Virus record (IMG/VR): IMGVR_UViG_2913147268_000002
Length of the DNA stretch: 48,006 nt
Strand: one strand, 5' to 3'
DNA from: a virus
Taxonomy: Duplodnaviria; Heunggongvirae; Uroviricota; Caudoviricetes
Shown here: positions 46,962 through 48,006 of the stretch, in pieces
Numbering within the stretch: the first letter of the stretch is position 1
Layout: every line of letters starts with the position of its first letter
The notes under the pieces: model-generated
The model's input: only the letters and a program-made list of their open reading frames with translations
Database searches by the model: none
Told to the model about the DNA's origin: nothing
Made by a program: the position numbers and the translations under genes

Positions 46962-48006
46962 ATGAGTGATTACGTAAATACTGGCGTGGAGGCGTGGAAA
47001 CCTAATTTTTATATATCTGCTGATAATAAAAACATCACGGATAAAATAAGAAAAGGTTTGATCAATATCACGCTGACAGATTACGGCGGCTCCAGTAAAC
47101 AGACAGACGAACTCCGCGTAGCAATAGTTTCTGAAACTCTGAAAATTCCGGCCCGCGGAGTAAAAATCAGTATTGGGCTCGGTTTCGGTAATCAGATAAT
47201 TGATAAAGGGATATACATCGTTGACGGTGCTAGCAGTGGCGGTGAACCCCGGGTAGTTGATTTCACAGCAAAAGCGGCTCCGATGAACGCAGCAAAAGGA
47301 TCTCCGACAGTTCAGAGCAAAAAGACTCGTTCCTGGAGCGACGTCACTGTCAGCGATATCGTTGCGACAATAGCGAGCGATAATGGGCTAAAACCACGCG
47401 TATCAAAGCGGTTTGCAGACAATGTTATCACGCAACTCGATCAGGTCGGCGAGTCAGATATGCACCTGATGTCGCGGCTCGCAACGAGATTCGATGCGGT
47501 GAGTAAACCCGCGGGCGGGTACTGGATATTCCTGCCGCGCGGCGCGGGCGAATCTGTTAGCGGTGCTCCGCTCCAGCACTACACGCTAACTCGTCGTGAT
47601 AACTCCAGCTGGGGCTATTCGAGAAATGGACAAAGTGGCGATAGTGGTAGCGGTGGCGAAAATCCGGAACCGACGTATCTGATTAAATATCACGACACAG
47701 CAACTGGGCAGATCAAAGAATTGCGGACAAGGTAGTGGCGGCGATCCTGTCATTGAATGGCCGGCAGTTGAGCCGTCGCTCGACGCAGCGAAAGAAGCTG
47801 CACCAGGGCTCAAGGGCGGTGCAGCTAAAAAAGAGTTCTCTATGACGTACACGACGCCAGCGACGCTCGATTTAGTGTCGCTGACAGCAGAATGCAAAGT
47901 CACAACTCAAGGTTTCGGGACCGAGGAGGACCGGGACTGGACTATCAACACACTGAGTCTGACGCTCGCTGAAAACGGTTTTTCGGTTCGGCTGTCTCTG
48001 GAGTAA
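46962..48006 (+). pseudogene. Tail protein D (P2 gpD-like) with apparent +1 frameshift near 47700-47740
   Basis: N-terminal 257 aa in frame 0 end at a stop (47733-47735). The +1 frame is open from 47683 to the TAA at 48004-48006 and ends DRDWTINTLSLTLAENGFSVRLSLE, resembling the P2 gpD C-terminus. Either a real frameshift or a sequence error. Confidence 0.6.

Follow-up and report, generated by a model that had tools for sequence, protein, structure and literature searches.

Is the last gene of this stretch a working tail gene, a sequencing artefact or a gene that has been lost? At the right-hand end of the window (by which is meant the whole 48,006-nucleotide stretch of viral DNA that was analysed) a reading frame related to gene D of phage P2 is found in two pieces. 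The first starts with the ATG at 46962 on the plus strand and runs for 257 codons to a TAG. The +1 frame is shut by a TGA at 47680-47682 and is then free of stops from 47683 to a TAA at 48004-48006, the final three bases of the window. A first-pass annotation, made from the letters and the open reading frames, had given these frames exactly, and had proposed that a +1 frameshift splits a gpD-like tail gene, so that either the prophage is tail-defective or a base was miscalled. Its identification of the gene is essentially correct. The features that bear on the question are collected in Table 1.

Table 1. The split hub gene, its neighbours and the surrounding prophage: positions in the window and basis of each assignment
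Feature	Position	Strand	Basis or content
ST131 prophage ('prophage 5' / s2-ST131), extent in window	6270..48006	+	EC958 match
gpU-like tail gene	46144..46572	+	Pfam PF06995, E=3.1e-31
Tail protein X gene, immediately upstream of hub gene	46734..46958	+	Pfam PF05489, E=2.3e-15
N-terminal fragment of gpD-like baseplate-hub gene	46962..47735	+	256 authentic codons, one out-of-frame AGG, premature TAG
1-bp insertion site	47729..47730	+	Alignment with ON470604.1; whole-prophage comparison with SaT040
C-terminal 91 codons and TAA of hub gene	47731..48006	+	Now in the +1 frame, outside the translated protein
Premature TAG due to the frameshift	47733..47735	+	Reading-frame inspection
54-codon ATG ORF within the orphaned C-terminal part	47842..48006	+	ORF list; PHROG

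Do the two pieces belong together? Compared with the PHROG 52 profile ('tail protein'), the N-terminal piece aligns through its residues 6-255 with profile positions 186-417, and the C-terminal piece aligns with positions 425-512. When one A is deleted, a protein of 347 amino acids is restored, and its residues 6-347 match profile positions 186-512 without a break (E=2.7e-94). The pieces are thus parts of one gene, as they represent consecutive segments of the same profile and become a single stretch once repaired; the proposed splitting of a gpD-like gene is borne out by this joining and by an intact copy that lacks one A. Public annotation treats the parts in various ways. The N-terminal fragment is WP_001296153.1 in RefSeq, where it is named 'hypothetical protein' or 'phage late control D family tail protein', and the intact allele is named 'contractile injection system protein, VgrG/Pvc8 family'. 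The 54-codon ORF is often annotated separately, in many genomes, as 'hypothetical protein' or 'Gene D protein'. Its translation corresponds to phrog_7984 (54 positions, 'unknown function', E=4e-41), a 'family' that appears to be made up of frameshift debris.

Where is the lesion? Four 'phage' records match positions 46700-48006. Three of them are identical to the window, and the fourth, ON470604.1, is otherwise identical over these 1,307 bp but is one base shorter; it carries the gene as a single 1,044-bp ORF annotated as 'tail formation protein D'. The sole difference is GGACAAGG in the window versus GGACAGG in the intact record. Alignment with an intact homologue, which the first-pass annotation had recommended as a way to find the indel, therefore locates one extra A, within the zone of 47700-47740 that had been suggested. 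The added base is A47729 or A47730, which are indistinguishable (ACAAGG versus ACAGG). The window codons are ACA AGG TAG, whereas those of the intact allele are ACA GGT AGT GGC, giving ...ELRTGSGGDPVIEW..., and the sequence downstream of the insertion is 100% identical to that of the intact allele. The matching records (vB_EcoM-569R10 and others) are PHASTER predictions from Illumina drafts and not isolated phages, and are thus uninformative on viability.

What is the protein when it is repaired? Full-length homologues encoded by a single ORF (347-354 aa, 60-97% identity to the repaired protein) are found in E. coli, E. fergusonii, Salmonella, Enterobacter, Citrobacter and Cronobacter, and distant homologues termed 'late control protein D' have 360-399 aa and approximately 41% identity. 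The only 257-aa entry among the homologues is the ST131 allele. An uninterrupted frame across the whole fold is present in the intact allele and in all other homologues, whereas that of the window breaks at 47729/47730; the window copy is therefore a pseudogene of the gpD/hub family and not a working member of it.

Family and structure searches place the repaired protein among the baseplate hubs. Pfam PF05954 is matched over residues 120-178 only, with 23.8 bits where the gathering cut-off is 30.1, and nearly all the homologues carry a precomputed PF05954.18 assignment. An NCBIfam match to VgrG_rel (18.5 bits against a cut-off of 275) was sub-threshold and uninformative, and was set aside. The best sequence relative of solved structure is the hub of pyocin R2 (6U5H chain C), which the N-terminal fragment matches at E=2e-22. 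An AlphaFold2 model of an intact homologue with 97% identity (P0001), based on an alignment of 65 sequences, has a mean pLDDT of 87 and a pTM of 0.82. With Foldseek, the model is matched over its whole length by 6u5h_A (E=9e-20), 9ki1_G (E=1.7e-15), 1wru (E=2.7e-15) and 1k28_D (E=7.5e-13), and full-length matches also include the P1, MuSo2 and type VI secretion (T6SS) VgrG hubs. In the 65-sequence alignment W326 is invariant and E310, G317 and G339 are nearly so; D323 is conserved in a smaller alignment. The repaired protein is a divergent gpD/gp27-like baseplate hub.

How close is it to known hubs? With P2 gpD (PF05954, Phage_GPD) it has in common a position at the end of the tail operon, after the tube, chaperone, tape measure, gpU and (gpX) genes. 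The gpD proteins of the P2-like phages Wphi and fiAA91-ss are approximately 30% identical to it over residues 14-220, i.e. the N-terminal two-thirds are homologous. P2-type gpD, however, has approximately 387-399 aa with a basic C-terminal tail, whereas the ST131 hub has 347 aa and no such tail; also, the window copy, unlike P2 gpD, is interrupted by the frameshift. The end of the +1 frame had been likened in the first-pass annotation to the C-terminus of P2 gpD, and this holds only indirectly. In the multiple alignment its C-terminal motif, LTAE..V.T.GFG..EDR.W, recurs in homologues named 'late control protein D', but the tblastn matches to Wphi gpD and fiAA91-ss D do not extend into the C-terminal part. 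The R2 pyocin hub PA0628 (6U5H) is among the best fold matches (TM 0.67/0.73, approximately 20% identity in the structural alignment), and the U-X-D gene order of the R2 cluster is that of the ST131 prophage. R2 pyocin is a head-less tailocin, however, whereas the ST131 element, as a full prophage, carries genes for integrase, replication, lysis, terminase, portal and capsid. Mu gp44 (9ki1_G, 1wru), T4 gp27 (1k28_D) and VgrG (4mtk_A) have the fold in common over the whole model at 10-13% identity, but VgrG has a fused spike domain, which the ST131 hub lacks. In hub gene architecture and gene order the element is nearer to the R-pyocin/phiCTX type (U-X-D) than to P2.

The prophage itself is well represented in E. 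coli ST131. Window positions 6270-48006 correspond to 2,085,963-2,044,227 of strain EC958 (O25b:H4-ST131) with one mismatch in 41,737 bp (99.998%), and the region of the gpD-like gene is identical in the two. In EC958 and in strain SaT040 the prophage is situated between the tRNA-Leu/Cys/Gly (leuZ) cluster and yecA. A 57-bp att repeat is present at window 6270-6326, and its second copy in EC958 is found between the last prophage gene (WP_001296152.1) and yecA, approximately 875 bp past the right end of the window; the window thus ends before the prophage does, exactly at the gpD stop. This prophage is the element that Tantoso et al. (2022, BMC Biology, PMC9205054) described as synteny cluster s2-ST131, or 'prophage 5'. 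It adjoins yecA in EC958 and is strongly conserved within ST131: of 79 ST131 genomes in their survey, 68 contained it, and it was nearly absent elsewhere.

Among the prophage genes are those for an integrase, a replicative helicase, the antiterminator Q, holins and an endolysin-like protein. These are accompanied by a lambda-like head module (terminase, gpW, portal, S49 protease, decoration protein, major capsid, FI) and a P2/R-pyocin-like contractile tail module (V, W, J, I, fibre, sheath, tube, chaperone, tape measure, U, X, D). The hub gene follows tape measure, gpU and gpX in the contractile-tail operon, with sheath, tube and chaperone also upstream. Could the element be an R-type tailocin, which is head-less? 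This was considered and rejected, as integrase, helicase, Q, terminase, portal, protease and major capsid genes are all present; having a full set of head, packaging, replication and integration genes, the ST131 element is not a tailocin in the strict sense.

Another possible frameshift, of a different kind, is seen upstream in the tail operon. The gpE-like tail assembly chaperone is encoded at 44117-44398. In the -1 frame there is no stop from 44356 until beyond the end of gpE, in the direction of the tape-measure start. This locus (44117-44520) has the usual gpE/E' arrangement, implying that a -1 frameshift is programmed there; inspection of the 43-nt gpE overlap revealed no canonical X_XXY_YYZ heptamer.

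To the left of the prophage, window positions 1-6269 differ from the flank in EC958 and SaT040, where the tRNA-Leu/Cys/Gly cluster and pgsA are situated. The segment carries on the minus strand (27-4943) the end of a lambdoid prophage, with the J C-terminus, lom and a side tail fibre, followed at 5437-6171 by a DNA-methylase-like ORF whose C-terminal half is seemingly out of frame. The window has no tRNA genes, and a contiguous match to at least 80% of window 1-7600 was found in none of the complete E. coli genomes. These left 6.3 kb could represent a tandem prophage, a rearrangement or a misjoin.

Is the extra A in the hub gene real? Single-base indels are the commonest assembly error, and a near-identical intact allele exists, both of which favour an artefact in a gene that is truly intact. 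The published treatment points the same way. RefSeq had called a frameshifted pseudogene in one ST131 assembly (SY51_RS10535), and Tantoso et al. (2022; PMC9205054) took the frameshift to be possibly an error of annotation and substituted an intact protein, which completed a 14-gene pyocin-like tail (the protein cited is DAS35886.1, which on a cluster look-up may be either the 257-aa or the 347-aa form); the PHASTER score given for the prophage was also intact (PMC9205054). Their argument, however, was based on identity to a deposited protein, not on reads.

The distribution of the two alleles speaks against an artefact. An exact 81-bp probe for the frameshift allele is found in 364 of 5,426 complete E. 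coli genomes, and an exact 80-bp probe for the intact allele in 66 of the same 5,426, i.e. the frameshift accounts for 85% (364/430) of complete genomes carrying either allele. The 364 identical copies come from many laboratories, years and platforms. The site is a matter of AA versus A, with no homopolymer run. For EC958, Forde et al. (2014) listed every discrepancy between the 454 and PacBio assemblies, and the table has no entry near 2,044,503, the nearest being at 2,027,391 and 2,598,139; the two assemblies are concordant at the site. The allele also follows the fimH30 lineage and not the sequencing technology. A base-call error, which the first-pass annotation had left as one of two explanations, is excluded for this allele by the 364 genomes, the lack of a homopolymer and the lack of a 454/PacBio discrepancy, and an assembly artefact hiding an intact gene has next to no probability. 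The annotation-error reading is contradicted for the H30 majority. In a large protein collection, the exact 257-aa and 347-aa proteins are each found in at least 1,000 contigs; in IMG/VR, a 30-mer for the frameshift occurs in no contig and a 29-mer for the intact allele in three (L008-L010), numbers too small for interpretation.

When did the insertion occur? With fimH types taken from Johnson et al. (2016; PMC4933990, Table 1), the frameshift allele is found in CD306 (H30S), MNCRE44 (H30R1) and JJ2434, JJ1886, JJ1887, EC958 and uk_P46212 (all H30Rx), and the intact allele in SaT040 and G749 (H22) and in ZH063 (H35). Among these typed strains (n=10) the frameshift is confined to H30, and the intact allele to H22 and H35. 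Many poultry isolates have the intact allele. The simplest reading is a single insertion on the branch to H30 (clade C), where clade assignment refers to the 10 typed strains, the 66 genomes with the intact allele being only partly typed. Reversion or recombination within H30 may also have taken place. Over 41.7 kb, the window differs from the H22 strain SaT040 by seven SNPs and three single-base indels. As the frameshift is among only these 10 differences, the mutation is recent.

The other two indels that separate the window from SaT040 are both in G-runs. One is a difference in run length at approximately window 20264-20270. The other is a 1-bp deletion (window 45257-45262) that splits the tape-measure gene (44507-46147; L007 3362-5001) of SaT040, in which gpD is intact; this split may reflect either a true inactivation that arose independently or a homopolymer error of PacBio sequencing. 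In one complete genome (NZ_CM190132.1, 2949995-2951816) the gpD remnant, already frameshifted, also contains an IS1 element, which indicates that the pseudogene is still decaying.

What would the truncation do to the tail? Gene D is among the essential tail genes of P2, and in the baseplates of pyocin R2, Mu and T4 the hub trimer links the spike, tape measure and tube. For these reasons the truncation should abolish tail assembly. In the structural model the break falls directly after the strand formed by residues 251-256. Lost are the strands at 260-265, 292-299, 312-316, 325-336 and 339-346 and the helices at 273-288 and 302-305, elements that are modelled with pLDDT values of 76-95, and the missing 91 C-terminal residues hold W326, E310, G317 and G339. 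The proposed course of events begins with one extra A after codon 256 (ACA) of the 347-codon hub gene, inherited vertically. The ribosome then reads AGG and halts at the TAG, and the 257-aa product is without its C-terminal part. Such a truncated hub would probably be unable to form the trimer that nucleates the baseplate, and the prophage of the H30 lineage would produce no functional tails, neither virions nor tailocin-like particles. With 91 conserved residues of the hub fold lost, the prophage is most likely tail-defective, the first of the two outcomes that the first-pass annotation had named. No experimental induction data on this prophage were found in the literature, and the EC958 papers do not mention it by name. 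A genuine, inherited 1-bp insertion in the hub gene of a myovirus-type prophage, with a presumptive loss of the tail, is very probably the correct account.

Might the ribosome itself restore the frame? A +1 recoding event at ACA-A-GGU, where a rare AGG is followed by a stop, would give the wild-type 347-aa protein at a low level that is enough for tails. No codon is rarer in E. coli than AGG, and +1 shifts are favoured both at hungry AGG codons and at stop codons, so that a rare AGG followed by a stop is a context typical of spontaneous +1 slippage; the skipping of A47730 would yield the exact wild-type sequence, ...RTGSGGDP.... In addition, a tail requires no more than three copies of the hub, so that a very low read-through may suffice. 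The split arrangement is not conserved, however. Every homologue has a single ORF, and the copy that differs by one base is also in one frame. The P-site tRNA-Thr is unable to re-pair from ACA to CAA, there is no Shine-Dalgarno-like stimulator, and the RNA fold of the downstream 131 nt is no better than that of shuffled sequences (z=-0.61). That the downstream frame is undecayed, being the same as in the intact allele at every base, fits recoding but is accounted for just as well by the recent origin of the mutation. Recoding that rescues the tail is thus very unlikely. A programmed +1 frameshift of the prfB or Ty1/Ty3 kind was rejected, as conservation, a slippery motif and a stimulatory structure are all lacking.

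Or might the two pieces act together, the 257-aa N-terminal fragment and the 54-aa product of the ORF beginning at ATG 47842 reassembling as a working hub? This ORF spans the last conserved strands and is widely annotated. Residues 257-293, however, with one strand and the long helix 273-288 among them, would be in neither piece. Naturally split homologues are absent, and upstream of 47842 there is no obvious strong ribosome-binding site. Reassembly of a split gene is extremely unlikely.

A third way out would leave the truncation real but harmless, with the hub of another prophage complementing it in trans. E. coli genomes do hold P2-like 'late control protein D' homologues with approximately 41% identity (e.g. 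P0021), and ST131 has a second P2/pyocin-like remnant, s1-ST131. At 41% identity, however, such a hub would be unlikely to assemble with a foreign spike, gpU, tape measure and tube, to judge from the sequences, and s1-ST131 was described as an incomplete remnant (PMC9205054). Rescue by a foreign hub is considered most unlikely. The inherited insertion, with a tail that is probably lost, is the reading retained here.

Frameshifted structural genes are common in prophages, and the one found here is unremarkable: a recent insertion, specific to one lineage, that makes a pseudogene and can already be seen in public annotation. Could it have been more than neutral? The frameshift at the base of fimH30 (clade C) might have left a phage or tailocin that is throttled by slippage, or the disarming itself might have been selected, with lysis and immunity genes kept and no virions released. 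Such a non-neutral role is very unlikely, but if true it would contradict the published idea of an intact tailocin weapon for the H30 strains.

That idea is where the finding has its main bearing. Tantoso et al. (2022; PMC9205054) suggested that a functional prophage or a pyocin-like tailocin gives ST131 a competitive edge and accounts in part for the success of the clone, and counted the late-control gene as intact, whereas the data here point to a real, lineage-specific mutation. As the frameshift is real in 364 of 430 genomes, including all typed H30 strains, the proposed ST131 weapon most likely has no hub in precisely that sublineage which went on to become pandemic. The extra A also offers a simple candidate marker to distinguish H30 from H22 and H35 strains of ST131. 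The lesion is of little general importance; its wider relevance is as a correction to the tailocin hypothesis and as a possible H30 marker.
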